A stretch of DNA of 64,000 nt from Patescibacteria group bacterium (lineage in GTDB: Bacteria; Patescibacteriota; Patescibacteriia; PEXW01): positions 73,978 through 137,977 of the forward strand of contig JBAZBR010000002.1 in the NCBI GenBank assembly GCA_041671325.1. Reading direction: 5' to 3'. Positions 6,386 through 60,015 of the stretch are shown here, in pieces (positions within the stretch are counted from its first letter, which is position 1; every line of letters starts with the position of its first letter). The position numbers and the translations under genes are program-made. The notes below the pieces were generated by a model. That model had not been told where the DNA came from. It made no database searches and worked only from the letters and a program-made list of their open reading frames with translations.

Positions 6386-6958
6386 TTAGCAATAACCTTT
6401 CAGTTTGGATGCCACGAAGGCCAAGGTGTCCCAAAGGCAAAAGGTTATAAAATGATCAAGTTGTTTTTGCGAGCCGCTACCGTATTCAGAAGGTGCTTTG
6501 ATGACATAAATCTTTATGCCAGTGTTTGCCCAGCGTTTCTTAAAAGTTGCCCTCACGCGGCGGGCGTGCCATTGCTGGGCAACAATAATTGCGCTATGCC
6601 AGCCATGTTCTTGGAGAATCTGTAGGGTCAAATCAGCGTTAAGGTAGGTCTGTTTGCTTTGAGTTTCCAAAAACACTTTTTCAGGATCCAAAACCTGTCT
6701 AGCAATCAGAGCATGCATTAACTCAGCTTCAGTTAAACCTTGATTTAAACGATAGCCTCCGCATAAAAGAATGTTTTTAGCTTTATCGTCGTTGAATATT
6801 TCCAAGGCTTTTTGCGCTACTGAAGCTGAATATGGACTGGCATTTTTGCCATCCTTGCTAACATCGATACCTACCGCAATTACCACATCAGCTTGGGCTG
6901 GCAAATCATCGTCTTTGGTAAGGAATTTTCCCTCAAAACATTTCCAAAATTTGTTCAA
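6386..6958 (-). CDS. DUF218/YdcF-family protein
   Basis: VVIAVG...ILLCGGY...TEAELM pattern typical of DUF218 (ElyC/SanA/YdcF). Confidence 0.6.
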   Translation of the reverse strand: MNKFWKCFEGKFLTKDDDLPAQADVVIAVGIDVSKDGKNASPYSASVAQKALEIFNDDKAKNILLCGGYRLNQGLTEAELMHALIARQVLDPEKVFLETQSKQTYLNADLTLQILQEHGWHSAIIVAQQWHARRVRATFKKRWANTGIKIYVIKAPSEYGSGSQKQLDHFITFCLWDTLAFVASKLKGYC

Positions 6959-8487: not shown

Positions 8488-8950
8488 AATTACTTTGACT
8501 TTTAATTTCATGTTTAAGAATAGTATCCTTATCCTTAAACAAAAATTTTCCTTCCACATTCTTACCTTCCAAAACTAAAGGTAACCAATATGGATCATCC
8601 GGCCACATATCAGTAAAGGGAATTTGGTTATGTTTGAACCATTGGGGTTTCATTTCCTCAGTTTCTTTAGGTTCGCCAAGATATTTATCACTACTAAACA
8701 AATGCACCTCCAAAATATCTGTTTGACCCTCGAATTCAAAAGTTAAGATACCTCGAAATTTTAAATCCAAAATTTGGATATTGGCTTCTTCAAACATTTC
8801 ACGCTTGGCCGCTTCCATAATTGTTTCACCAGGGCGGACCTTGCCGCCAAAACCATTCCAGCGATTAACACCAAAGCCGCGCTTCTTCATGCCCAAAAGG
8901 ATTTGATCGGGGCTATAGATCAAGCATAAGGTTTGTAGAATGGCGGCCAT
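8486..8950 (-). CDS. Nudix hydrolase (MutT-like)
   Basis: Nudix box GGKVRPGETIMEAAKREMFEEANI. Confidence 0.85.
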   Translation of the reverse strand: MAAILQTLCLIYSPDQILLGMKKRGFGVNRWNGFGGKVRPGETIMEAAKREMFEEANIQILDLKFRGILTFEFEGQTDILEVHLFSSDKYLGEPKETEEMKPQWFKHNQIPFTDMWPDDPYWLPLVLEGKNVEGKFLFKDKDTILKHEIKSQSN

Positions 8951-8959
8951 ATTTAAAGA

Positions 8960-9145
8960 TTATTTTGCTTTGACCGCCTTTTTCATTTCATTCTTAATGC
9001 AGGAAGTGCAGGCCACAACTCTTTTGCCGTCTTTAAATAAGGTTTGCAAATTAATCTTTTGGCGTTTTATTGATTTTTTCTTGGAATAGCAGACTTGGTT
9101 TGCCTTTAACGAACCGCGGCCGCAAATGGAACAATTCTTTGTCAT
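8960..9145 (-). CDS. rpmB: 50S ribosomal protein L28
   Basis: MTKNCSICGRGSLKANQV...NLQ...KRVVACTSCIK matches the bL28 zinc-ribbon pattern; start taken at the internal ATG (the track ORF starts at a TTG at 9202). Confidence 0.7.
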   Translation of the reverse strand: MTKNCSICGRGSLKANQVCYSKKKSIKRQKINLQTLFKDGKRVVACTSCIKNEMKKAVKAK

Positions 9146-9205: not shown

Positions 9206-9841
9206 ATGCTCCCTCTTAATTATTTTATGTCTGGTCAGCCGCTTGAAGCCTTGGCGTCATTGCTGGCTATTATCATTGCCATTACCATCCATGAATTCAG
9301 CCATGCTTTTTCTTCCTTGCTCCAAGGCGATAGCACAGCAGAAATTGAAGGCCGAGTGACTTTAAATCCCGTCTCCCATGTGGACATTTGGGGTTTGTTG
9401 GCTTTAATTTTTCTGGGTTTTGGCTGGGGCAAGCCAGTGCCTTTTAATCCTTATAATTTGAAGTTTAAAAAATGGGGTCCGGCCTTAGTCTCTCTGGCTG
9501 GGCCATTTTCTAATTTACTGGGGGTAATTATATTTGGGCTTGCGCTTAGGCTGGTTTTGCAATTTGCGCATTTGCCGACCGATAACCTTTTAATCACCTT
9601 TTTATTCTTGTTGGTAATTTTCAATATTATCTTAATGCTTTTCAATTTATTGCCCATCCCGCCCCTTGACGGTTCCAAACTTTTGAATTTATTGCCCAAG
9701 CAATTTGATGGTTTAGTCCAGTTTTTCAACAAGTACGGTTTTGTAATCCTGATTGCCATAATTCTGTTCGGCCAGAAATATTTGGGCGCAATTTTTGGCT
9801 ATATTGAAAGGGGAATTTTGTCTTTAATCATCCCGGCATAA
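9206..9841 (+). CDS. Site-2 protease family zinc metallopeptidase (M50), short form
   Basis: HEFSHAF (HExxH) in TM, NLLPIPPLDGSKLL motif. Confidence 0.8.
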   Translation: MLPLNYFMSGQPLEALASLLAIIIAITIHEFSHAFSSLLQGDSTAEIEGRVTLNPVSHVDIWGLLALIFLGFGWGKPVPFNPYNLKFKKWGPALVSLAGPFSNLLGVIIFGLALRLVLQFAHLPTDNLLITFLFLLVIFNIILMLFNLLPIPPLDGSKLLNLLPKQFDGLVQFFNKYGFVILIAIILFGQKYLGAIFGYIERGILSLIIPA

Positions 9842-9858: not shown

Positions 9859-9977
9859 GTTGACCCCGCACCACTTTCTAAAACAATCCAAATTTTTAAA
9901 TAAATAAAGAGATCAATTCTGGATAAGTATTCAATTAATAATAGGTAAATTTGTATGGAAAGTGGTGCGGGGTTGAC
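9859..9977. repeat. Element with perfect 20-bp terminal inverted repeats (GTTGACCCCGCACCACTTTC ... GAAAGTGGTGCGGGGTTGAC) around an AT-rich 79-nt core; MITE-like or structured RNA
   Basis: Exact reverse-complement arms at 9859-9878 and 9958-9977; a second copy with near-identical arms at 29115-29229. Confidence 0.7.
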
Positions 9978-11463: not shown

Positions 11464-13539
11464 ATGCCAAGAGAGTATTCATTAGAAGATACCAGAAATA
11501 TTGGGATTATTGCCCATATTGATGCGGGAAAAACCACTGTTTCCGAGCGGATTTTGTTTTATACCGGCAAAAAGCACAAGATTGGCGAAGTTCATGAAGG
11601 GGAAGCGGAAATGGATTGGATGGAGCAAGAAAAGGAACGCGGTATTACCATCACCGCAGCGGCCACTACTTGTTTTTGGAAAAACAAGCGCATCAACCTT
11701 ATTGACACCCCAGGCCACATAGATTTTACGGTTGAGGTCCAGCGCTCTTTGCGGGTTCTCGACGGCGGTGTAGTAGTTTTTGACGGCGTGGCCGGCGTGG
11801 AATCTCAGTCCGAAACTGTTTGGCACCAGGCTGAAAAATTCGGCGTGCCCAGAATTTGTTTTATTAATAAAATGGACCGCATGGGTGCAGATTTTTACTA
11901 TGACATTAAAAGCATTCACGAACGTTTAACTACCCGCGCGCATCCTCTGCAACTGCCAATTGGTGCGGCCGAGACTTTCAAAGGCATAATTGATTTGTTT
12001 GAACGCAAAGCTTTTATTTATAACGATGATCTGGGCAAAGAACTTCAGGTCATTGAAGTGCCAGCAGACATGAAAGAAAAAGTTGAAGACTATCGGCACC
12101 AATTAATTGAAGCCATTGTCGAACAGGATGAAAAACTCCTGAATCAATACTTAGAAGGCAAAGAGCCTTCATTGGAAGACTTGAAAAAAGTTTTAAGGCA
12201 AGCCTGCATCAAGAATGAAATTGTGCCAATTCTTTGCGGTTCGGCTTTGAAAAATAAAGGCGTGCAGTTTTTACTCGATGCGGTTGTTGAATATTTGCCA
12301 AATCCATTGGAAATCCCTCCGACTAAAGGCAAAGACCCAAAAACCGAAGCTGAAATTATTTGCGAACCAAGCGATGAACAACCTTTTGCCGCTTTAGTCT
12401 TCAAAATAGCCGCTGATCCTTTTGTTGGTAAACTGGCCTTTTTCCGGGTTTACTCCGGATCTTTAAACGCTGGTTCTTACGTGATTAACACCTCGACTGG
12501 TGAAAAAGAGCGTATTGGCAGAATTATCCGTTTGCATGCCAACCACCGAGAAGACATGGAAGCAGTTTATGCTGGAGAAATTGCTGCAGCCGTAGGCTTG
12601 AAAAGCACTTTCACCGGCCAGACAATTTGCGATCCAGCCAGGCCGATTGTTTTGGAAAGCATTACCTTCCCAGCGCCAGTCATTGACCTGGCCATTGAAC
12701 CAAAAACCAAGGCTGACCAGGAAAAGATGGGTTTTGCCATCCAAAGATTAGCAGAAGAAGACCCGACTTTCCGGGTTAAATTTGATGATGAAACCAACCA
12801 GACTATAATTTCCGGCATGGGTGAATTACATTTGGATATTATTGTTGATCGGATGAAACGAGAATTTAAAGTTGAAGCTAATGTCGGCAAACCCCAAGTC
12901 GCTTATAAAGAGACCATTACCGGCGAAGCGGAAGGCGAAGGCAAATACATTCGCCAGACTGGTGGCCGCGGTCAATATGGGCATTGCTGGGTCAAAGTGA
13001 AACCCCAGGAGCGCGGCAAGGGCTACGAATTTGTGGATGAAGTGAAAGGCGGCGCCATCCCGCGTGAATTCATCCAACCAATCAACAAAGGCATAAAAGA
13101 AGCTTTAGACAAAGGCATAATTGCCGGCTACCCCGTAATCGATATGCAGGTTACGGTATATGACGGCACTTACCACGATGTTGATTCTTCGGAAATGGCT
13201 TTTAAAATTGCCGGTTCCATGGCTGTGCAAGCCGCGGTAAAAAGGGCTAAGCCGGTTTTACTTGAACCAATCATGAAAATAGAAGTTGTTACCCCTGAAT
13301 TATTTATGGGGGATGTAATTGGGGATTTGAATTCCAAGCGGGCGCAAATTAAAGAAATGCGGGATCGGGGCAATATGAAAGTAATCGATGCAACCGTACC
13401 TTTGGCGGAGATGTTTGGCTACGCAACTGCCTTAAGATCCATGACCCAGGGCCGAGCCTCATATTCCATGGAATTTTCGAATTATGCGGAAGTGCCTAGG
13501 AATGTGACTGAAGGCATTATCGCCAAAGCTAAAGAGTAA
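11464..13539 (+). CDS. fusA: Elongation factor G
   Basis: [17 protein letters not shown], full-length EF-G. Confidence 0.97.
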
Positions 13540-35069: not shown

Positions 35070-35609
35070 ATGGATAATCCACCACAAAACCAAGCAAATC
35101 CCGAAGTAAAAGAAACAAAGAAACCGCTATGGTTTAAGATTATTATAACTTTTGTCATTATCTTAATCGCGGCTATAATTTTTTATGTGTTTGTTTATTT
35201 CACCCAAGGGAATATAACATTTAGCAGGTTGGCAGCACCAATAATTGGTATTTCCCAATTAGAATGTAAATTAAATAAAGGTATTCACTATGTTAATTTA
35301 AATGGAGTCCAGAACATTTGCTTAAAAAAATCCGTTAATGCCGGGAAAGTTTGTACTCATGACAGAGATTGCCAGGGCGGAGGTTGCATGCCATCTGCTA
35401 CAAGGAGTAATGAGACGGGCCCATTTTCAAATTGGCAAGGTACCCCAAAATTTAATGATAAGGGCGAGTTAACGGGTATTTGTAGTGATCTTGATTATTC
35501 AGATTGGCCAACTAAAGATGCGGATAAAATAAACTCTGGCGGATGCAATTTTCCAATCGGGACAATTGATAATCAAACGTATGGAGATAGCGGGTGTTTA
35601 ATTTTTTAG
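35070..35609 (+). CDS. Membrane-anchored Cys-rich hypothetical protein
   Basis: N-terminal TM, about a dozen Cys in the ectodomain. Confidence 0.6.
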   Translation: MDNPPQNQANPEVKETKKPLWFKIIITFVIILIAAIIFYVFVYFTQGNITFSRLAAPIIGISQLECKLNKGIHYVNLNGVQNICLKKSVNAGKVCTHDRDCQGGGCMPSATRSNETGPFSNWQGTPKFNDKGELTGICSDLDYSDWPTKDADKINSGGCNFPIGTIDNQTYGDSGCLIF

Positions 35610-35626
35610 TTAAGTAAAAAATTTTC

Positions 35627-35786
35627 GGAAAGTGGTGCGCTTGCAGAACATAAAATACCGCAGAAACGAGGAACGGACTGAGCGAAGTGAAGGAGTACGC
35701 GTTTCTGCGGAAAAGCGGCGCGTTTGTGAAACCCGAAGTAGCCTCGCAAATGCGGGGATACGCAGGGTGTAACAAACGATGACGCG
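35627..35786. repeat. Solo half of the IR element (GGAAAGTGGTGCG) followed by a GC-rich structured element (11-bp perfect stem CCGCAGAAACG/CGTTTCTGCGG) related to 56190-56330
   Basis: Shared blocks GCA(G)AAACGAGGA ... ACGCGTTT..GC..GAAAAGCG with the element after cspA. Confidence 0.5.
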
Positions 35787-35862
35787 TGGTGCGCCCAGGA
35801 GGAATCGAACCTCCAACCTTGGGCTTAAAAGGCCCCTGCTCTGCCAATTGAGCTATAGGCGC
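35787..35862 (-). tRNA. tRNA-Lys (anticodon TTT)
   Basis: Cloverleaf: acceptor GCGCCTA/TGGGCGC, D-arm GCTC..GAGC, anticodon loop CTTTTAA, T-arm GGAGG-TTCGATT-CCTCC, CCA encoded. Confidence 0.8.
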
Positions 35863-40634: not shown

Positions 40635-40653
40635 AAATTAATTTTTTAAACAC

Positions 40654-42060
40654 ATGAAAAATCCCAAAGGTTTTCTCCCCATCGCCGCAATTATTATTAT
40701 CATAGTGGTTGCTGCCCTCGCCGCAGGCGGTTCGTATTATTACACCAAGACCCTGAATAAAAACACCAATTCCGTATTAAATACCAACATTGCAGTTGTG
40801 GATGAAAATACTAATGCAGTCGTTAACACAAATACAACAGTTGTAAATGGGAATACAAACGTAACCGTAAATTCAAACGGCAATTTGAATACCAATACTG
40901 TGGTCTTAAATACCAATACCGCCGTGAATTTAAATACCAATACGAGTACCATCAAATATCCTGGGCAAGAATGGCCAGGGTTGACTGATAACTCGGTTTT
41001 ATATCAAAAATACTCGAGCACAGCATCTGACGAGAAGGTCTATACTGTCCAACCTGGGCAGCAACCCAGCGTATATTTTACAATTCCAACGGGTTATTCA
41101 TTGGTTTCAAATGAGAGCGGCCGGCTTATTTGGTTGGAGAAAGATAATTATTTATATATTTATGATATTCAAAAAGGGAGCACCAGAAAAACTTCTTTGC
41201 CCGCTTTAATCGCTGGTGAGGTGCGTTTTGAATCTGCAAGACCCACTGTTTACTCAACAGATGGCGTAGAGGTGATTATTCAGTACAGTCTCTTTGATAA
41301 GAATTCCGCCGCATATAATAGTGAATTTGCGGGGCCTAATCCAATTTCCACTAAACGTTACCGTTATAATATTACTACCAACACCTATACCCCTGGAGAA
41401 AACATGAGCGGGATATTTTATTCTTTATGGGATCGTAAATTAAATATTGGCTATAACCATTTAGCCGGTGAAGGGGTTGGTTCCAAGGCCCCTATCGAAA
41501 AGACTTTCTTTGATACCGGAAACACGGAAGACTCTGCGGATTATGGGAATAATTCTACTCCTGCTTTTTCACAAGATGGAAAGTGGGTTGCCGTACCTGA
41601 ACCATCTAAGGCGCCACTGAAAATATATATATTTTCTCTCCCAGATATAAAAAATCCGGTTAAAACCCTCACCTTACCTACCGTGAAAGATACGCCGCCA
41701 GTCACAAATACCTTAGGGTATATTTACGACTTCGAATGGACAACGGATGATCAAAATTTAATCCTTTCATTTAACCACTCTATTTTCGTAATCAATGTGC
41801 AAACAGAAAAAGCCACAAAGGTTTTCGATAATACCCAAAATGATTCAAGTTATACTGGATGGAGTTATTATCCAGAGATATCCGGATCAAATAGGTATAT
41901 TTATTTTGTTGATTACAGCAATTCTAATCCAGCAACCCTCAAACCAGAAAATAACATCGATGAATTAAAGGCGTATGACATCACAACCGGGAAAACTACA
42001 ATTCTATTAAAAACAACTGGAGAAACAAATATTCAATTAATAGGATTTGATAATTTCTAG
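40654..42060 (+). CDS. Paralog 1 of membrane-anchored surface protein family (conserved N-terminal TM + N/T-rich linker, divergent C-terminus)
   Basis: MKNPKGFLPIAAIIIIIVVAALAAGGSYYYTK + NTN repeats shared with 42097 and 43392 genes. Confidence 0.75.
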   Translation: MKNPKGFLPIAAIIIIIVVAALAAGGSYYYTKTLNKNTNSVLNTNIAVVDENTNAVVNTNTTVVNGNTNVTVNSNGNLNTNTVVLNTNTAVNLNTNTSTIKYPGQEWPGLTDNSVLYQKYSSTASDEKVYTVQPGQQPSVYFTIPTGYSLVSNESGRLIWLEKDNYLYIYDIQKGSTRKTSLPALIAGEVRFESARPTVYSTDGVEVIIQYSLFDKNSAAYNSEFAGPNPISTKRYRYNITTNTYTPGENMSGIFYSLWDRKLNIGYNHLAGEGVGSKAPIEKTFFDTGNTEDSADYGNNSTPAFSQDGKWVAVPEPSKAPLKIYIFSLPDIKNPVKTLTLPTVKDTPPVTNTLGYIYDFEWTTDDQNLILSFNHSIFVINVQTEKATKVFDNTQNDSSYTGWSYYPEISGSNRYIYFVDYSNSNPATLKPENNIDELKAYDITTGKTTILLKTTGETNIQLIGFDNF

Positions 42061-42096
42061 TAAAATTTTATTAAGCAAATTTTTAAAATTATAATT

Positions 42097-43287
42097 ATGA
42101 AAAATCCCACAGGTTTTCTCCCCATCGCCGCTATTATAATAATCGTAGTAGTTGCCGCTGTTGTGGCAGGCGGTTCGTATTATTACACCAAATCCTTAAA
42201 TAAAAACACGAATACGGTTGTAAATACAAATGTTGCGATGGTGAATGAAAATACTAATGCGGTTGTTAATACAAACACAACAGTTGTAAATGGGAATACA
42301 AACGTAACCGTAAATTCAAACGGCAATTTGAATACCAATACAGTAATCGTTAACTCAAATACAAATACCGTGGTTAATTCAAATACTAATTCTGATGCAA
42401 CCGCTGGGTGGAAGACGTATACAAATGCAAAACAGGGTTACTCCGTGAAGTATCCAAGTAATTGGGTTACGCAGGTTCAAAACACAAATGGTGGTGAGGT
42501 AGCAAATGGCAATATAACAACCTTTTGGAGTAAGCCAAACTACAAAGATCTTATACCAGAAGGTACTGAGTGGGTACCAACAGATACACTTTATTATTTT
42601 CGTGTCCATTACCAAGACGAAAGTAGTGCAGCAAATGCGGTAGATCCGAACACCAAGAAACTCTCTAGTGAAGCAATAACCGTTGGTGGGATCTCTGGTT
42701 TAAAAGAGGCATATCAGGGTGCGTATGGAAAATGGACGGTTGTTTATGTAACCAAAAATGGCATAAAGTATGGTTTATATTTACCAGACAAAACCGCCGA
42801 ACAACAAGCACATGCATCAACCATCCTTTCCACCTTCACCTTCCTCGACCAAACCGTCGGGTGGAAGACGTATACGAATACAGAATATGGTTTTTCATTT
42901 AAGTACCCTGCTTCTTGGAAAGAGACAGATTACACCGCTTCGGCTGATTCTCCACTGAACAGCGATGGTGTGAAATTTGAGGATTCAGCTGGGAAAGCTG
43001 GTTCGTTTTACTGGATGCAGGGCGGATATGTACCAACCCAAGACGGTCAGTGGGATTCGACGACAACATCATTGACGGTTGGTGGTCGAACAGCTTCACA
43101 AGTCAGAATGACACCTAAAGCCGGTCAACAGTGGGCAGGTGGAGAACCAAAGCCTCGTGCGGTGGTGAGTCTAACTAGTAATCCGACAACTTGGGGGAGT
43201 AATGCAAGTATGGGTTTAGTGCAAGGCTCTGAAAAGTCTTGGGTAACAGTAGATACTATTTTGTCCACCTTCACTTTTACGAAATAA
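42097..43287 (+). CDS. Paralog 2; C-terminal region has two WKTYTN-x-YGFS-x-KYP-x-W repeats
   Basis: N-terminal ~88 aa near-identical to paralogs; ILSTFTF C-terminal motif. Confidence 0.75.
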   Translation: MKNPTGFLPIAAIIIIVVVAAVVAGGSYYYTKSLNKNTNTVVNTNVAMVNENTNAVVNTNTTVVNGNTNVTVNSNGNLNTNTVIVNSNTNTVVNSNTNSDATAGWKTYTNAKQGYSVKYPSNWVTQVQNTNGGEVANGNITTFWSKPNYKDLIPEGTEWVPTDTLYYFRVHYQDESSAANAVDPNTKKLSSEAITVGGISGLKEAYQGAYGKWTVVYVTKNGIKYGLYLPDKTAEQQAHASTILSTFTFLDQTVGWKTYTNTEYGFSFKYPASWKETDYTASADSPLNSDGVKFEDSAGKAGSFYWMQGGYVPTQDGQWDSTTTSLTVGGRTASQVRMTPKAGQQWAGGEPKPRAVVSLTSNPTTWGSNASMGLVQGSEKSWVTVDTILSTFTFTK

Positions 43288-43294
43288 ATTTTTA

Positions 43295-43351
43295 ATGAGC
43301 CGTATTTTAGTCAAAGACGCAACAAAAAGAATTAACGAACCAATCTTGTAA
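43295..43351 (+). pseudogene. Duplicated remnant of the aspS 5' end (MSRILVKDATKRINEPIL*)
   Basis: ~75% nt identity to aspS start (44487: MKRILVKDTVNKINEPVLL). Confidence 0.6.
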
Positions 43352-43391
43352 ATTGGATGACAAAATTTTAGTTAAATTAATATTAAAGAAT

Positions 43392-44477
43392 ATGAAAAAC
43401 CCCAAAGGTTTTCTCCCCATCGCCGCAATTATTATAATCATAGTGGTTGCTGCCCTCGCCGCAGGCGGTTCTTACTATTACACAAAGACCCTGAATAAAA
43501 ACACTAATACCGTGTTAAATACCAATATTGCGGTGGTGAATGAAAATACTAATGCGGTTGTTAATACAAATACAACAGTTGTAAATGGAAATACAAACGT
43601 AACCATGAATTCAAACGGCAATTTGAATACCAATACTGTGGTCGTCAACTCAAACACTAATGTCGTGGTTAATTCAAATACAAATTCTGATGTAACCGCT
43701 GGGTGGAAGACATATACAAGCACAAAATATGGTTTTTCTCTGAAATATCCTCTAACCATGCGTGTTTTAGAGGTAAACGAAACGAGTGGAATAATCCTTA
43801 GGGTAGGTGTTGAGGGGTCGGCAAATGGGGATAATGTTTTGGTTTATAATAAAAGTTCAAATGCTGGAATTCCTTATAGCACAGTTAAATCAGAAAGTGG
43901 TAAGTCTTTCGTTATTTCTCATGTTGGCGTTGAGGCCGATCAAATTCTTTCCACCTTTGTTTTCCTCGATCAAACCGCTGGGTGGAAGACGTATACAAAT
44001 TCTGAATATGGTTGGACTATGAAATATCCGAATGATTGGACGGTCAATAATTCTTATCAGACAACAGATCCGAATGACATTTTTGAAACCCCGATTCGCA
44101 CAACGACTTTCACAAATCCCAACAAGTATTACAGGTTGCTTGTCGGGATAAAAAAGAAAACCGATTCCGGTAGTATTGTCCCACGGACTGGGATTGGAGC
44201 GGGAGAATTTATAAAAGGCGATACAGTTTTAATTGGTAGCACTTCAATGACTTTATGGAATTTAAATTATAATAATTTGACTTCTGAGATTTTTAATTAC
44301 AATCCAAGTACAAATTCCAATTTTGAAATTAGCAATTTTCAATTTATTGCATATTTCGATTGTGGTACAGCAGCAACCATAGAAACAATAAAGCGTTGCG
44401 ATCAAACAAATTTATCAGTAATACCAGAATATAAAACTTTTAAACTTATTCTTGGTTCATTAGTATTGCCTAATTAA
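43392..44477 (+). CDS. Paralog 3; two WKTYT-x-YG-x-KYP repeats
   Basis: Start at MKNPKGF (the track ORF begins 39 nt upstream). Confidence 0.75.
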   Translation: MKNPKGFLPIAAIIIIIVVAALAAGGSYYYTKTLNKNTNTVLNTNIAVVNENTNAVVNTNTTVVNGNTNVTMNSNGNLNTNTVVVNSNTNVVVNSNTNSDVTAGWKTYTSTKYGFSLKYPLTMRVLEVNETSGIILRVGVEGSANGDNVLVYNKSSNAGIPYSTVKSESGKSFVISHVGVEADQILSTFVFLDQTAGWKTYTNSEYGWTMKYPNDWTVNNSYQTTDPNDIFETPIRTTTFTNPNKYYRLLVGIKKKTDSGSIVPRTGIGAGEFIKGDTVLIGSTSMTLWNLNYNNLTSEIFNYNPSTNSNFEISNFQFIAYFDCGTAATIETIKRCDQTNLSVIPEYKTFKLILGSLVLPN

Positions 44478-56136: not shown

Positions 56137-56169
56137 AAAAAGTACTCACTAAACCTGAGTGCTTTTTTA
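56137..56169 (+). terminator. Rho-independent terminator after cspA
   Basis: AGTACTCA...TGAGTGCT + TTTTTT. Confidence 0.7.
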
Positions 56170-56189
56170 GTTAAGTTTTTTCTATTAAG

Positions 56190-56330
56190 ATATCCAGCGC
56201 AAACGAGGAGCGCATCCCGAGTTTGCCGAGGGAGAGCACGCGTTTGCGCTGAAAAGCGAGGCTTCGCACGAAGAGCGGAGTTTTTCGTGTTTACGCGAAA
56301 ACGTAGCTCGAAGTGCGAAACGAGCTGGTA
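56190..56330. repeat. GC-rich structured element related to 35640-35786 (9-bp perfect stem GCGCAAACG/CGTTTGCGC plus further hairpins)
   Basis: Shared sequence blocks and the same stem position with compensatory changes relative to element at 35658-35710. Confidence 0.5.
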
Positions 56331-56472
56331 GCCCACTCCGGTCTTGGAACAAGACTCTAAGGGTATTGTAAGGCTTTCTCGGGCTACTTTAGATAGATTT
56401 AAGTCTCTCGGTCGGGGCTTTTTTTTAAGAATGAGACAAATGAGACACTACAAACCAGATTTGGTACCTGTC

Positions 56473-57027
56473 TCATTCTTCAATCATATTAGCGCTTCCG
56501 GACAATTTATAAGGGTCATTCGTTAACGCCCACCAGAGCGATGTATTGATAATATCAGGCTCACCATTTTCATCTAAATCTCGAATTTGTAGCGTGCGAT
56601 CAACCAACTCGACCCATTGCCACTTACCCGGGCTAAAAATATATCCAGCATAATCAAAATTGACACTGGAAGGTAGTTCTGCAAGCTTCACTTCACCATT
56701 TTCTTTATGCACCTCTGTCATGCCGAGAACTGAAATAATTCCGTTAGGATCATCCGGTTGCGTAAATGGATCACTCTCTGGAGCTAATTTTGAATATGCA
56801 TAGAATTTAAACATACCTGCGAATGCATCATTTACTTGGTAATAAACAGCTAGTACTCCAGTTACAAAACCAAAAAAAGCGAACAAAGAAATAACCGCAA
56901 GCGTTATTCGCCTCCAAGGAGTTGTCTTCATTTTTACGAAAAACCAAATTAACCCTACTAATCCAATCACGATAAGTGGGATAATAAAGTAAAAGGTTGT
57001 CGTGTTAATATCAAATTGTGGATCCAT
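56473..57027 (-). CDS. Hypothetical membrane protein (2 N-terminal TM, extracytoplasmic domain)
   Basis: Hydrophobicity; no motif. Confidence 0.6.
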   Translation of the reverse strand: MDPQFDINTTTFYFIIPLIVIGLVGLIWFFVKMKTTPWRRITLAVISLFAFFGFVTGVLAVYYQVNDAFAGMFKFYAYSKLAPESDPFTQPDDPNGIISVLGMTEVHKENGEVKLAELPSSVNFDYAGYIFSPGKWQWVELVDRTLQIRDLDENGEPDIINTSLWWALTNDPYKLSGSANMIEE

Positions 57028-57053
57028 AGAAAGTTTCTTAATATTTATATTAT

Positions 57054-57094
57054 ATCAAAAAAAGAAGCTCTGGCAAGAGAGTCGCCAGAGCTTT
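57054..57094 (-). terminator. Rho-independent terminator for the lipoprotein gene
   Basis: AAGCTCTGGC...GCCAGAGCTT then T-run on the minus strand. Confidence 0.7.
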
Positions 57095-57112
57095 ATTGCG
57101 TCAGATTACCAG

Positions 57113-57601
57113 CTACGGGCAGCTACCCTGCCAAGGCGAGGGTTCGCCTACGCTGTTGAACTGGAGACAACCCAGGTGCGTCGATCCACTGATACATTTC
57201 GACGGCCAGGTATGCGATTGAATACCCACAAAATTGTTCCATACATTTGCGATGTATCCGCAACCGGCAGGCAGTCCGCTAATGGAGACATATCTGTACC
57301 CGCCAGGCAAGGTCATGGTAGTGCTCTGCCACCAGACATAGCCATTCTGCTGAACCTGGAAGGTCCAGTAGCCCAGGTTGGACGGACCCCGGACCGAAAA
57401 AGTTGCGGTCGCGGTAGAAAGCGCCATATTCGGTGATCCCTTTTCGTCGCCAGTAATGGTCACAACGAGCGTATCGCCCTTCACCGCCGTTGTATACGAC
57501 GAAGTCGGATTGGACTGCTGGTCAGCATTCTCGGAACAGCCGATGAAGGCGAGAACCAAGAAAAGCGACAGCAAGGTGAGAAGAGTTTTCTTCAAAGTCA
57601 C
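57113..57601 (-). CDS. Putative lipoprotein (signal peptide + lipobox FIGC)
   Basis: MTLKKTLLTLLSLFLVLAFIGC; locally GC-enriched. Confidence 0.65.
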   Translation of the reverse strand: MTLKKTLLTLLSLFLVLAFIGCSENADQQSNPTSSYTTAVKGDTLVVTITGDEKGSPNMALSTATATFSVRGPSNLGYWTFQVQQNGYVWWQSTTMTLPGGYRYVSISGLPAGCGYIANVWNNFVGIQSHTWPSKCISGSTHLGCLQFNSVGEPSPWQGSCP

Positions 57602-58210
57602 TTTGTGACTCCTTTTTTGAGGTTTTAGATTAACAACTGTCTAAAAAGGTTACTTATCGATAAGACCCCCTTTCATTTTGAAGGAACAATAATACCCAAT
57701 TGGTAAATTGGGGCAAAAAACAATGAGCTTTGGCTCATCTAGCTCAAGTATACATACCTATGAAAATATTGCAAGGCTCAAGAGGTATCCAATGAGTCTG
57801 AAATTAATATTCGAAAGTATGCAAAACATCTTCTCAGAGAGAGAAGCATCACAGAAAAAAGAAAACTACTCGCGAATTTACGGAGTAGGTTGGTGTATCA
57901 GGATAAGAAAATTATGTTAGTATAAATTAATTTTTTAAACTGGTACCTCAATTACGCCTAGGGATGAATCTTGAGTTCGAACTACACTCTGCTCACAGGC
58001 AAAACTGGAGAATGACAATAAGAGCGTGAATGTAAAACGCGGACTGCGGACTAGGTGCGAAAAAGGTCGCGGCCAAAGAAATCTTTGGCTCGAACCTCGT
58101 TCTGGCTTTCGGGAAAGTCCGCCCTGTTCTAAATTTTCGCCCACAAAGACACTGGTTTGCCATACCCAGCGCCAGAGAAAAAATCGGTCAAATTTCTGAT
58201 TGTCAGATGT

Positions 58211-58288
58211 TGGTACCGCCACCGGGATTTGAACCCGGGTTACCAGGATGAGAACCTGGCGTCCTAGACCGAACTAGACGATAGCGGC
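58211..58288 (-). tRNA. tRNA-Glu (anticodon CTC)
   Basis: Cloverleaf: acceptor GCCGCTA/TGGCGGT (two G-U), anticodon stem CCAGG/CCTGG with loop TTCTCAT, T-arm CCGGG-TTCAAAT-CCCGG, CCA encoded. Confidence 0.75.
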
Positions 58289-58521
58289 ATGGTCTTTAAT
58301 GAGTTTTCTAAGTAATCCTGATTTCTTGATTTGTATTTCCCTTTTTAGAGCTTGGATTTTTAAAGCTAATGTTCAGTTTTGATAATACCATAAGGAATGT
58401 ACGCTTTTGTTGATTTAACTTTTCCTTTATTGTGTTCATTAAAGCGCCTTTGGATATTATCAGTAACGCCAATGTACAATCTGTTAAATTTCGGACTTCT
58501 CAAAATGTAAAGATAAAACAT
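58289..58521 (-). pseudogene. GIY-YIG nuclease (UPF0213-like), frameshifted; intact N-terminal 51 codons (58366..58521) then continuation in another frame abutting tRNA-Glu
   Basis: MFYLYILRSPKFNRLYIGVTDNIQRRFNEHNKG...PYGIIKTE then stop; +2 frame continues ALKREIQIKKSGLLRKLIK matching the family C-terminus. Confidence 0.6.
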
Positions 58522-59157: not shown

Positions 59158-60015
59158 ATGCAACTTTTAGGAGGAAATGTCCGTTGGGATAAGGGCGATT
59201 GGCAGGAAAGCGCCGGGAATAGGTCTTTGGACCAGAAAGTCGAAGTCAATGGAGTCATTTGGCGGGTTAAAATCCAGAGTCTTACCGGACGGGGTGGCGT
59301 AGTCGGGTGTACATCCGAATGTTATTATGCCAATGTCGGTACGGACCAGATTTCGGTGGTTATTAAGATGGGAAAAGAGGGCTTTGGCGAGCCGCCTATT
59401 TATACCGTACAGATAGGTTGGAGCAATACGGATAAGCACGAACAAGCCACATACCGCTATTGCTTCAATACTGCCTATGACGAAGCAAACGTCATTGATT
59501 GGGAGATTTTACCAGCCGACAAGCCCGATTTGTTGGAAAAGATTTTCGATATCCAGCAAATACTGTCGGTGTTTGATCACAGCAAGACCTTCGACTATGC
59601 CCTGAAGCATTTGCGGCATAAGCTGGACCACCCCGAGAAATCAACAACCTACATTTTGTTTAGGGACGTTACTATGAGTCCGAACAAAATCACTGGATCA
59701 TTTTTATTGCTGGGTCCCCGGCGTACGCTGCTAGGGTTTGATGGGAGTGAAAAAGGGTTTTTGTATGGCGGATTCCAGCTTTTTAGTCGTTCGGGCGAGG
59801 ATATCTCCTCCAGGAGCGGCAGTCTAAGTTTGTCTCTAAAGGATGGGTATTATGAAATATTTATCCTTAATCCGGCCAATTGTGGTAATAGCACCTGGAT
59901 TAAAGTCTTCAGTGCTGATGACAGCAAAAATCTGGTACCCGAAACCGTAGAAATCCCAGGCGACGTTTCCCAGTTCATCCTGTCCTTGGCATCGCCAGTT
60001 ACGGCTGCTGAATAA
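59158..60015 (+). CDS. Hypothetical protein (285 aa), sole ORF of the direct-repeat-flanked cassette
   Basis: GAGG RBS; no recognizable motifs. Confidence 0.6.
   Translation: MQLLGGNVRWDKGDWQESAGNRSLDQKVEVNGVIWRVKIQSLTGRGGVVGCTSECYYANVGTDQISVVIKMGKEGFGEPPIYTVQIGWSNTDKHEQATYRYCFNTAYDEANVIDWEILPADKPDLLEKIFDIQQILSVFDHSKTFDYALKHLRHKLDHPEKSTTYILFRDVTMSPNKITGSFLLLGPRRTLLGFDGSEKGFLYGGFQLFSRSGEDISSRSGSLSLSLKDGYYEIFILNPANCGNSTWIKVFSADDSKNLVPETVEIPGDVSQFILSLASPVTAAE

Follow-up and report, generated by a model that had tools for sequence, protein, structure and literature searches.

The locus considered here raises the question of what a short, strongly folded and GC-rich element is doing directly against the 3' end of a tRNA-Lys gene, and whether it is read as RNA or as DNA. 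It lies in a stretch of 64,000 nucleotides, referred to below as the window, from a member of the Patescibacteria (CPR) that is close to Candidatus Kerfeldbacteria. The DnaB of this organism shares 95% identity with its counterpart in a Kerfeldbacteria MAG and 85-90% with those in a groundwater MAG cluster. An earlier note, made from the letters of the window, had described the site as a structured segment with a relative downstream of cspA and had read the two as an unassigned structured ncRNA or structured repeat family that shows covariation. The features that it listed are all present in the sequence, and the family reading is supported: there is no matching Rfam family, and two further homologues keep the fold.

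The structured part of this first copy, element A, occupies positions 35658-35786 of the window on the plus strand. A segment of ~160 nt had been proposed; a structured element is indeed present in it, but the structure begins only at 35658. The description as ORF-free holds in substance, since the mechanical minus-strand ORFs that cross the region run through the tRNA gene too. The GC content is 0.57 both in A and in the second copy, B, against 0.42 in the window and 0.27-0.37 in the flanks. Hairpin 1 of element A (35658..35710, plus strand) has a perfect 11-bp stem in which CCGCAGAAACG (35658-35668) pairs with CGTTTCTGCGG (35700-35710). As first described, its purine-rich 31-nt loop starts with AGGA and ends with ACG, the last letters being GGAGTACG. 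An AAAA linker follows (35711..35714, plus strand) inside the conserved block GAAAAGCG at 35710-35717, and on the tRNA-sense strand this linker region reads CGCUUUU. The further hairpins that had been noticed beyond this block are one long hairpin, hairpin 2, which fills 35715-35786 on the plus strand (72 nt) and ends flush with the tRNA. It is built of a basal stem, 7 bp, a 3x3 loop GAA/GTA, 4 bp, a 3x3 loop GAA/GCA, ~10 bp and a tetraloop. The tRNA-Lys(UUU) gene, with encoded CCA, is located on the minus strand at 35787..35862, its 3' end abutting hairpin 2, and a promoter scan places a promoter-like site for it at 35912-35884 on the same strand.

On its other side the A locus is flanked by a plus-strand 179-aa ORF of unknown function, whose stop codon overlaps a left block, TTTTTTAGTTAAGT (35602..35615, plus strand). 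This exact 14-mer is common to the A and B loci and occurs in the window only at 35602 and 56163. Alignment of the two loci reveals a 24-nt insertion in A relative to copy B (35616..35640, plus strand). The insertion holds GGAAAGTGGTGCGC, which contains a copy of the tRNA-Lys 3' end (GTGGTGCGC, 35632-35640) together with the arm motif of an inverted-repeat (IR) element located at 9863-9973. The half copy of the IR arm that had been reported here is real: GGAAAGTGGTGCG at 35627-35639 is identical to 9957-9969 and, on the opposite strand and with one mismatch, matches 9867-9879. The 9-nt tRNA-Lys end GTGGTGCGC is found three times in the window against 0.1 expected, and two of these occurrences are at the A locus, 154 nt apart.

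The second copy, which had been placed at 56190-56330, has an equal layout and extends over 56195-56325 on the plus strand. Its hairpin 1 (56195..56251, plus strand) likewise has a perfect stem, in fact of 11 bp, formed by CAGCGCAAACG (56195-56205) and CGTTTGCGCTG (56241-56251) around a 35-nt loop ending in GAGAGCACG. The AAAA linker (56252..56255, plus strand) leads into a hairpin 2 (56256..56325, plus strand) of the same architecture, with loops GAA/GAA and GGA/GTA. Both copies can therefore be described as an 11-bp hairpin, an AAAA linker and a ~70-nt hairpin with two 3x3 internal loops. The shared sequence blocks are exclusive to the two sites within the window: AAACGAGGA-N-ACGCGTTT has 2 matches against 0.00 expected, and exact matches to ACGCGTTT-N5-GAAAAGCG are found only at A and B. 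The claim of compensatory stem changes is borne out by three hairpin-1 pairs that are altered on both sides between A and B. Both copies fold better than shuffled sequences, with z = -4.5 (A) and -3.95 (B) as RNA and z = -6.2 (A) and -3.0 (B) as DNA. The left block of the B locus (56163..56176, plus strand) contains a T-run that is the U-tract of the cspA terminator.

Relatives of the host were reached by synteny, through homologues of DnaB, CspA and GAPDH and then the contigs that encode them. One of them (L055, with L056 and L057; DnaB 85% identical) carries a full copy, C2, at 8935-9037, which abuts tRNA-Lys, and just distal to it a truncated copy, C1, in which hairpin 1 and the linker are followed by the initial 11 nt of hairpin 2. 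Another (L081; GAPDH 82% identical) carries copy D on the minus strand at 11816-11934, abutting tRNA-Glu(CUC); it was found by nhmmer with B as the query (E = 7.7e-14). A covariance model, R1, was built from A, B, C2 and D and searched against the window (filters off) and ~330 kb of relatives' loci, ~390 kb in all. It matches only these four copies (78-111 bits, with whole-element scores of 110.8 bits for A and 106 bits for B) and the fragment C1 (15.8 bits). The known copies are these four full ones and C1. Judged by the sequences collected so far, the family appears confined to a Kerfeldbacteria-like clade of Patescibacteria.

The element matches no RNA family of Rfam 15, among them RNase P, tmRNA, SRP, 6S, Y RNA and ribozymes. 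The proposed Rfam/Infernal scan of both regions returned nothing but tRNAs: at gathering threshold, the whole window yielded only its three tRNAs. When the loci of A, B, C and D were scanned by E-value, nothing above 29 bits came up except tRNAs, all other matches being far below gathering scores. Block-pattern scans covered 596 Gb of genomes, plus JGI metagenomes and IMG/VR. An over-specific exact-block pattern, AACGAGGA..ACGCGTT..AAAAGCG, had 17 matches in the GTDB species genomes and 29 in the JGI metagenomes, all of them chance matches that have no stem. Three patterns followed by nhmmer on 154 loci recovered no family member from IMG/VR, and the GenBank phage collection gave no match.

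Each copy consists of two hairpins joined by (R)AAA, and matching substitutions on both arms are shown to keep this fold. Pairs were counted in an alignment of A, B, C2 and D (n = 4 sequences) that was made by hand and fitted to the fold; its rows map back exactly to the genome, and MAFFT kept its register. MAFFT combined with RNAalifold on the raw sequences was dropped because hairpin 2 was mis-registered. In the hand alignment of the four copies, 94.4% of 143 cells are standard pairs, compared with 30-48% after a shift of the partners by 1-3 columns. In the same fold-fitted, four-copy alignment, both sides have changed in 29 of 37 pairs, a number reached by none of 500 shuffles. The hairpin-1 stems of the four copies read CCGCAGAAACG, CAGCGCAAACG, CCCCGCAAAC and CCCCACGAAGT. 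Hairpin 2 has the same geometry in all four: a basal stem, 7 bp, a 3x3 loop, 4 bp, a second 3x3 loop, ~10 bp and an apical loop of 3-4 nt. The first internal loop places GAA or CGA opposite G-N-A/C, and the second places G-R-A opposite G-N-A. Unpaired motifs are also conserved, namely GAG(C/T)ACG, which closes the hairpin-1 loop on its 3' side, and a linker of the form (R)AAAGCG or TTAAGCG; B, C1 and D further have GGCTTCG in common at the 5' base of hairpin 2. A small peptide encoded in the hairpin-1 loop after AGGA/GAGGA was considered and rejected, as no ORF is conserved between A and B.

What defines the element is the point at which it meets the CCA end of a tRNA gene. Hairpin 2 terminates exactly at this end, on the strand antisense to the tRNA. 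With a slash marking the junction, the sequence is ...ACGCG/TGGTGCGC in A and ...ACGCG/TGGTGGGC in C2 (both tRNA-Lys), ...ACGAGC/TGGTAGCG in D (tRNA-Glu) and ...ACGAGC/TGGTAGC in B. The tRNA partners are thus Lys-UUU in two genomes and Glu-CUC in one, B having a 7-nt vestige only. The gene cspA, which had been taken as the context of the second copy, is incidental and no part of the element, because the cspA genes of relatives lack such an element; they stand in other contexts, with 66-134 nt to the next gene. Synteny downstream of cspA was rejected as the context of the element on this ground, and the GAPDH genes of relatives are not even followed by cspA.

The surroundings of B bear traces of a tRNA end, and no intact tRNA is present at its junction. 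The vestige TGGTAGC (56326..56332, plus strand) is the reverse complement of GCTACCA, the 3' end of the tRNA-Glu beside copy D of L081. It corresponds to the tRNA-Glu end of relatives and not to that of the window's own tRNA-Glu (GGTACCA), which is 1.9 kb off, and beyond these 7 nt the B sequence diverges from the tRNA. A third hairpin (56327..56389, plus strand) has a terminal stem of 7-8 bp, and its minus strand ends in ...GGGCUACCA, which resembles an acceptor end (plus ACCA). Neither ARAGORN nor Rfam calls a tRNA in this hairpin, and its interpretation as a decayed tRNA-Glu was rejected, since local and global alignments to tRNAs score no better than shuffles. A terminator-like hairpin with a T8 run (56401..56428, plus strand) lies downstream of B and hairpin 3. 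The heptamer TGGTACC directly repeats the 3' terminus of the window's tRNA-Glu as read antisense. It is present at 56462..56468 and again at 57941..57947 (both plus strand), and the two copies bracket a segment with 184-aa and 162-aa ORFs. The tRNA-Glu(CUC) gene itself (58211..58288, minus strand) has no type-1 element of its own. Its 270-nt trailer was considered as a further copy and rejected, with model R1 negative and the fold no better than shuffles. An RNase P-like CGGGAAAGTCCGCCC motif in this trailer was also rejected, as Rfam gave no match.

Comparison with relatives shows that the element is dispensable, for orthologous tRNA loci of close relatives do without it. It is absent from four of six tRNA-Lys loci (L053, L058, L060 and L062, with DnaB 85-88% identical) and from one of two tRNA-Glu loci (L236), and even in the closest relative (L052, DnaB 95% identical) the RNase T gene is followed by other DNA. 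The copies are also mosaic. B and D are equal at 48 of 59 positions in hairpin 2 (81% identity) and at only 5 of 11 in each hairpin-1 arm, whereas A and B are equal at 8 of 11 positions per hairpin-1 arm and at only 21 of 59 in hairpin 2. The hairpin-1 loop of C1 is closest to that of D (17 of 23), while its start of hairpin 2 is like those of B and D. Six double changes have accumulated in the 11-bp stem while hairpin 2 changed by just 19%, so exchange of modules among family members would explain these changes better than stepwise compensation. Dispensability and mosaic composition together favour a structured repeat or cassette over a housekeeping ncRNA.

Duplicated tRNA ends, flipped tRNAs and variable cargo mark the tRNA 3' flanks around the element as recombination hot spots. 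The orientation of tRNA-Lys flips among relatives, and the genes past its 3' end vary between an Eco47II-type restriction-modification pair, a methyltransferase, a FecR-like protein or none. In L058 and L062, an unrelated GC-rich insert is surrounded by two copies of the tRNA 3' region, a direct one of 20 nt and an inverted one of 13 nt. In the window, the second TGGTACC copy and the tRNA-Glu end bracket a stretch of 263 nt (57948-58210). The acceptor stems of the window's tRNA-Lys and tRNA-Glu are entirely unlike the alleles of relatives. A truncated GIY-YIG ORF is located beside the tRNA-Glu of the window.

The evidence on which strand folds, and on whether the element is RNA or DNA in nature, is mixed. 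On the strand antisense to the tRNA, 64-84% of the unpaired positions are purines, and the G-N-A/G-A-A internal loops and GAA triloops sit on this strand. The minimum free energies (kcal/mol) are -57.9 on the antisense strand vs -43.1 on the tRNA-sense strand for A, -60.7 vs -56.1 for B and -82.3 vs -80.3 for C, and as DNA both strands fold well (z -2.8 to -6.2). Counted in plus orientation, the mismatch cells comprise 4 G.U, 3 A.C or C.A (all in C2, and G.U on the other strand) and 5 others; among the four copies, wobble pairs show no strand bias. Neither strand has GNRA or UNCG apical loops. After hairpin 2 on the tRNA-sense strand there is a U run of UUUU in A and B, UUU in C2 and UU in D, and a terminator consensus scan finds no site at the element. 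In the antisense orientation, a promoter scan finds no site upstream of hairpin 1. The arrangement TTTAGT-14 nt-TAANNT precedes hairpin 1 in B, in C1 and, once the 24-nt insertion is removed, in A (boxes TAAGAT/TAATGA/TAAAAT).

The reading that we tentatively place ahead of the others is a small, non-autonomous and structure-dependent DNA cassette, made of ~130 bp of hairpins and ~35 bp of left flank, which would recombine at tRNA CCA ends and be passively transcribed as a tRNA 3' trailer. Recombination at the 3' end of the tRNA would bring such a cassette in, remove it and reshuffle it. The recombining enzyme would be encoded elsewhere, because none is encoded nearby, and the selected trait would be the ability of one strand to fold. 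Purine-rich internal loops on the antisense strand, together with the equal rarity of G.U and A.C, suggest that the fold is most likely read as single-stranded DNA. Since nothing stands between the cassette and the tRNA, its transcription as a tRNA 3' trailer would be passive; within this trailer, the reverse complement of hairpin 2 with its U2-4 could help to end or protect the transcript. Several observations speak against the cassette. There is no recombinase, transposase or integrase near any copy, as judged from neighbouring ORFs and from Pfam annotation of the relatives' loci. Terminal inverted repeats are missing, and the alignments of loci gave no pair of matched empty and filled sites that would fix the termini. 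A direct repeat of the tRNA end is found near A only and not near C or D; it lies inside the 24-nt insertion and may mark a separate event. The unpaired motifs (GAGCACG, AAAGCG and G-N-A loops) and the purine bias of one strand fit a functional RNA too. Pattern scans of genomes and metagenomes are without further members, and the family may be too rare for a typical mobile repeat. A more specific version, which we regard as doubtful, is that the element serves CPR bacteria as the folded-strand substrate of a structure-specific recombination system docking at tRNA CCA ends, attC-like in its logic. The 3x3 purine loops would then be read by a recombinase encoded elsewhere, and the element would seed gene islands downstream of tRNA-Lys and tRNA-Glu.

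Next in rank, and somewhat unlikely, is a functional RNA on the tRNA-sense strand, whose trailer hairpins would end, protect or process the transcript or be released as a tRNA-linked small RNA. Hairpin 2 begins at the first base after CCA in every copy and so must be co-transcribed with the tRNA, and upstream of tRNA-Lys there is the promoter-like site. The CGCUUUU of the linker in A and B provides a GC stem base and a U run, although this run is just 2-4 nt long and the terminator scan makes no call; real terminators with T-runs lie 20-70 nt past the element in the tRNA direction. Even the tRNA-less B is still preceded by an acceptor-like helix ending in ACCA, as if a processing signal had been kept. 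Sequence and fold are kept between genomes whose other intergenic DNA is unalignable, but the element is lacking at most of the tRNA-Lys loci and one of the two tRNA-Glu loci of close relatives counted above. The tRNA-sense strand also has the weaker folding energy in A, B and C, and its unpaired positions are 64-84% pyrimidine, with UUC/UNC internal loops that are unusual for structured RNAs.

Two further explanations appear improbable, and to a similar degree. One, which corresponds to the structured ncRNA of the earlier note, is an independent sRNA gene antisense to the tRNA, with its own promoter just before hairpin 1 or carried within the 3' UTR of the convergent gene upstream; the 3' part of this sRNA would run antisense into the tRNA. 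Its strand is the one with the better folding energies, the purine-rich unpaired positions and the G-N-A/G-A-A loops and GAA triloops, but C2 has three A.C cells that become G.U only on the other strand, and the presence of the element among relatives is patchy. The TTTAGT and TAANNT-like boxes stand before hairpin 1 in A, B and C1, yet no promoter is called there, the 14-nt spacer is too short for sigma-70, and a start set by the -10-like boxes would fall within the stem of hairpin 1. At three of four loci a convergent gene points into the element; however, cspA and the DUF1059 gene have terminators of their own ahead of B and D. The T8 terminator-like site follows B on the plus strand, whereas in A, C and D hairpin 2 leads straight into the antisense tRNA with no terminator behind it. 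The other explanation is a functionless scar, consisting of leftover ends of larger integrative elements or of palindrome-forming repair, with arms kept alike by gene conversion within the palindrome. Against a scar stand the detailed geometry, which is identical in four copies although their stems have as few as 30-45% of positions in common, the unpaired motifs that are conserved across genomes and a hairpin 2 that is as conserved between B and D as neighbouring protein-coding genes. In its favour, the same tRNA flanks hold unrelated GC-rich inserts bracketed by tRNA-end repeats (L058, L062 and window 57948-58210), there is no wobble bias, a truncated copy (C1) exists, and the truncated GIY-YIG ORF lies near tRNA-Glu.

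Set beside known systems, the element resembles REP/ERIC repeats and attC sites in its logic, but it lacks the core boxes of attC and, in the loci covered, the high copy number and the RAYT gene of REP repeats. Like the MITE-like REP/BIME/REPIN and ERIC repeats, it is a short, GC-rich and imperfect palindrome between convergent genes, with a fold that is kept despite sequence drift and a presence that varies between relatives. Those repeats are described as usually co-transcribed with their neighbours and as affecting RNA ends and stability (PMC2229807, PMC2267715). In contrast to these high-copy, scattered repeats, the element has 2 copies in the 64-kb window, 4.5 in ~390 kb and none in several 20-kb loci of relatives, and it is docked at a tRNA CCA end. 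No RAYT or other transposase-like gene is present in the annotated regions, and neither terminal inverted repeats nor a GTAG-type head motif are seen. A MITE was also rejected, as the ends of A (TTGCAGAACATAAAATA... and ...ACAAACGATGACGCG) are not complementary, nor are those of B, C and D. A target-site duplication on every copy fails, with the 9-nt GTGGTGCGC at A, a tRNA-side heptamer only at B and none at C or D. The 9-nt repeat at A was rejected as a target-site duplication that defines the cassette ends, as it lies in the 24-nt insertion and C and D are without a repeat. An IS200/IS605-derived PATE does not fit either: the two hairpins of the element are not related to each other, no spacer separates hairpin 2 from the junction, and no common tetranucleotide is found left of hairpin 1.

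The attC sites of integrons have a hairpin architecture with fixed unpaired spacers and little sequence conservation, mark the boundary of a cassette and carry distinguishing unpaired bases on one strand. The element shares the conserved hairpin architecture, the fixed unpaired positions and the distinguishing unpaired bases on one strand. An integron attC was nevertheless rejected, as RYYYAAC/GTTRRRY core boxes are absent from either hairpin base in any copy and there is no integrase. Unlike attC, the element forms no cassette array (two copies, 20 kb apart) and has two hairpins instead of one, and its partner site would be a tRNA 3' end and not attI. The element is like the att sites or remnants of tRNA-targeting integrative elements in that it stands at tRNA 3' ends with variable cargo beyond, and in that copies of tRNA ends occur nearby (9 nt at A, 7 nt at B and around tRNA-Glu, and, clearly, 20 nt around the unrelated inserts of L058 and L062). 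It differs from them in that there is no integrase, C and D have no direct repeat, and the 'island' would be only ~130 bp. Classical attP arms are AT-rich protein-binding regions, whereas the element consists of covarying GC-rich hairpins. Intrinsic terminators and tRNA 3'ETS RNAs, such as 3'ETS-leuZ of E. coli, share with it a place immediately 3' of a tRNA within one transcription unit and, on the tRNA-sense strand, a GC-rich stem with U residues after it. The element departs from them in its U tract of 2-4 nt, in a 70-nt interrupted helix followed by a second hairpin, and in its lack of conservation at orthologous loci. An intrinsic terminator was rejected, the U tract being UU-UUUU where at least 5 U in 8 are required, with no site in the scan. 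A retron msr/msd was rejected because none of the four neighbourhoods encodes an RT domain, and a dif-like reading of GGTGCGC was rejected because it rests on just 7 matching nt.

Patescibacteria have tiny genomes with very little non-coding DNA, and to our knowledge almost no regulatory RNAs have been described in the phylum. A GC-rich structured element that is kept under selection in such tiny genomes needs explaining. The model built from four sequences, combined with the rule that hairpin 2 is flush with CCA, provides a handle for a census of the family. If the element is a trailer-derived RNA, it would represent a new tRNA-linked RNA class. If tRNA CCA ends are instead the docking site of a cassette, the element would be a new substrate for structure-specific recombination and would point to the way in which accessory genes are acquired and rearranged at the tRNA loci of these uncultured bacteria, where restriction-modification systems and secreted proteins are seen here.

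The heptamer TGGTACC, which is the 3' end of tRNA-Glu read in antisense, is found in four plus-strand copies within 3.5 kb (56462-56468, 57941-57947, 58211-58217 and 59933-59939), as against six in total on both strands of the entire window. These copies enclose a pair of ORFs of 184 and 162 amino acids (56469-57940) and also a non-coding stretch of 263 nt downstream of tRNA-Glu (57948-58210). This arrangement looks like successive insertions at the tRNA-Glu end.

Several other features lie in the same neighborhood. The non-coding stretch at 57948-58210 holds CGGGAAAGTCCGCCC, which recalls a strand of RNase P P4, and carries a good terminator-like hairpin on the minus strand at about 58035-58075. 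Rfam gave no match to this stretch, and its plus-strand folding was not above that of shuffled sequences (z = -0.16). A short distance upstream of tRNA-Glu is a truncated minus-strand ORF of 51 amino acids (58366-58521). It matches PHROG homing endonucleases and, in Pfam (E = 2.8e-10), the GIY-YIG catalytic domain over that domain's N-terminal half. Immediately 3' of element B, the second copy of the GC-rich cassette, a hairpin at 56327-56389 has on the minus strand an acceptor-like 7-bp stem followed by CCA (...GGGCUACCA); neither ARAGORN nor Rfam called it, and it has no significant similarity to any tested tRNA. A perfect 12-bp inverted repeat (56427-56438 and 56469-56480, arms AAGAATGAGACA and TGTCTCATTCTT) overlaps the stop of the 184-amino-acid ORF, is preceded by a run of eight T on the plus strand, and contains one TGGTACC copy in its loop.

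The tRNA-Lys loci of related Patescibacteria are also variable. Two contigs (L058, 7246-7394; L062, 8802-8986) carry an unrelated GC-rich insert 3' of tRNA-Lys, closed by a 10-bp stem derived from a T-arm copy (GCTGGGAATC...GATTCCCAGC). The final 20 nt of the insert directly repeat the tRNA's 3' end, ACCA included. The insert resembles a tRNA 3' half in which the T-loop has been swapped for about 95 nt. In several relatives, a small conserved membrane ORF (MSGGQLFVVFLLII... / MTGGQIFVVLFLII...) sits between the RNase T gene and tRNA-Lys (L053, ~9270-9360; L060, ~6800-6890; L052, ~330-420). The window lacks this ORF and has a 179-amino-acid ORF and element A, the first cassette copy, in its place.

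Three tandem paralogous genes at 40650-44040 (468, 396 and 374 amino acids) have repeats of 300 nt and 72 nt in common (71-87% identity), also carry internal repeats of the AATACNAAT type, and probably form a repetitive surface protein family. Upstream of rpsL, an inverted repeat has arms at 9863-9887 and 9949-9973, each consisting of CCCCGCACCAC plus TTTC and flanked by TTGAC(C/A). The arms look like a tRNA 3' end (..ACCA) with its trailer, and 13 nt of the repeat (GGAAAGTGGTGCG) recur at 35627-35639. It may be a further relic of tRNA-end recombination or a regulatory palindrome.

The tRNA genes themselves differ from those of relatives. The acceptor stem of tRNA-Lys(UUU) (35787-35862) is GCGCCTA, whereas all sampled relatives have GGGTTCG; that of tRNA-Glu(CUC) (58211-58288) is GCCGCTA, whereas all sampled relatives have GGCGCCA. 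Because both stems are wholly unlike those of any sampled relative, they suggest that the two genes were replaced rather than merely drifted.
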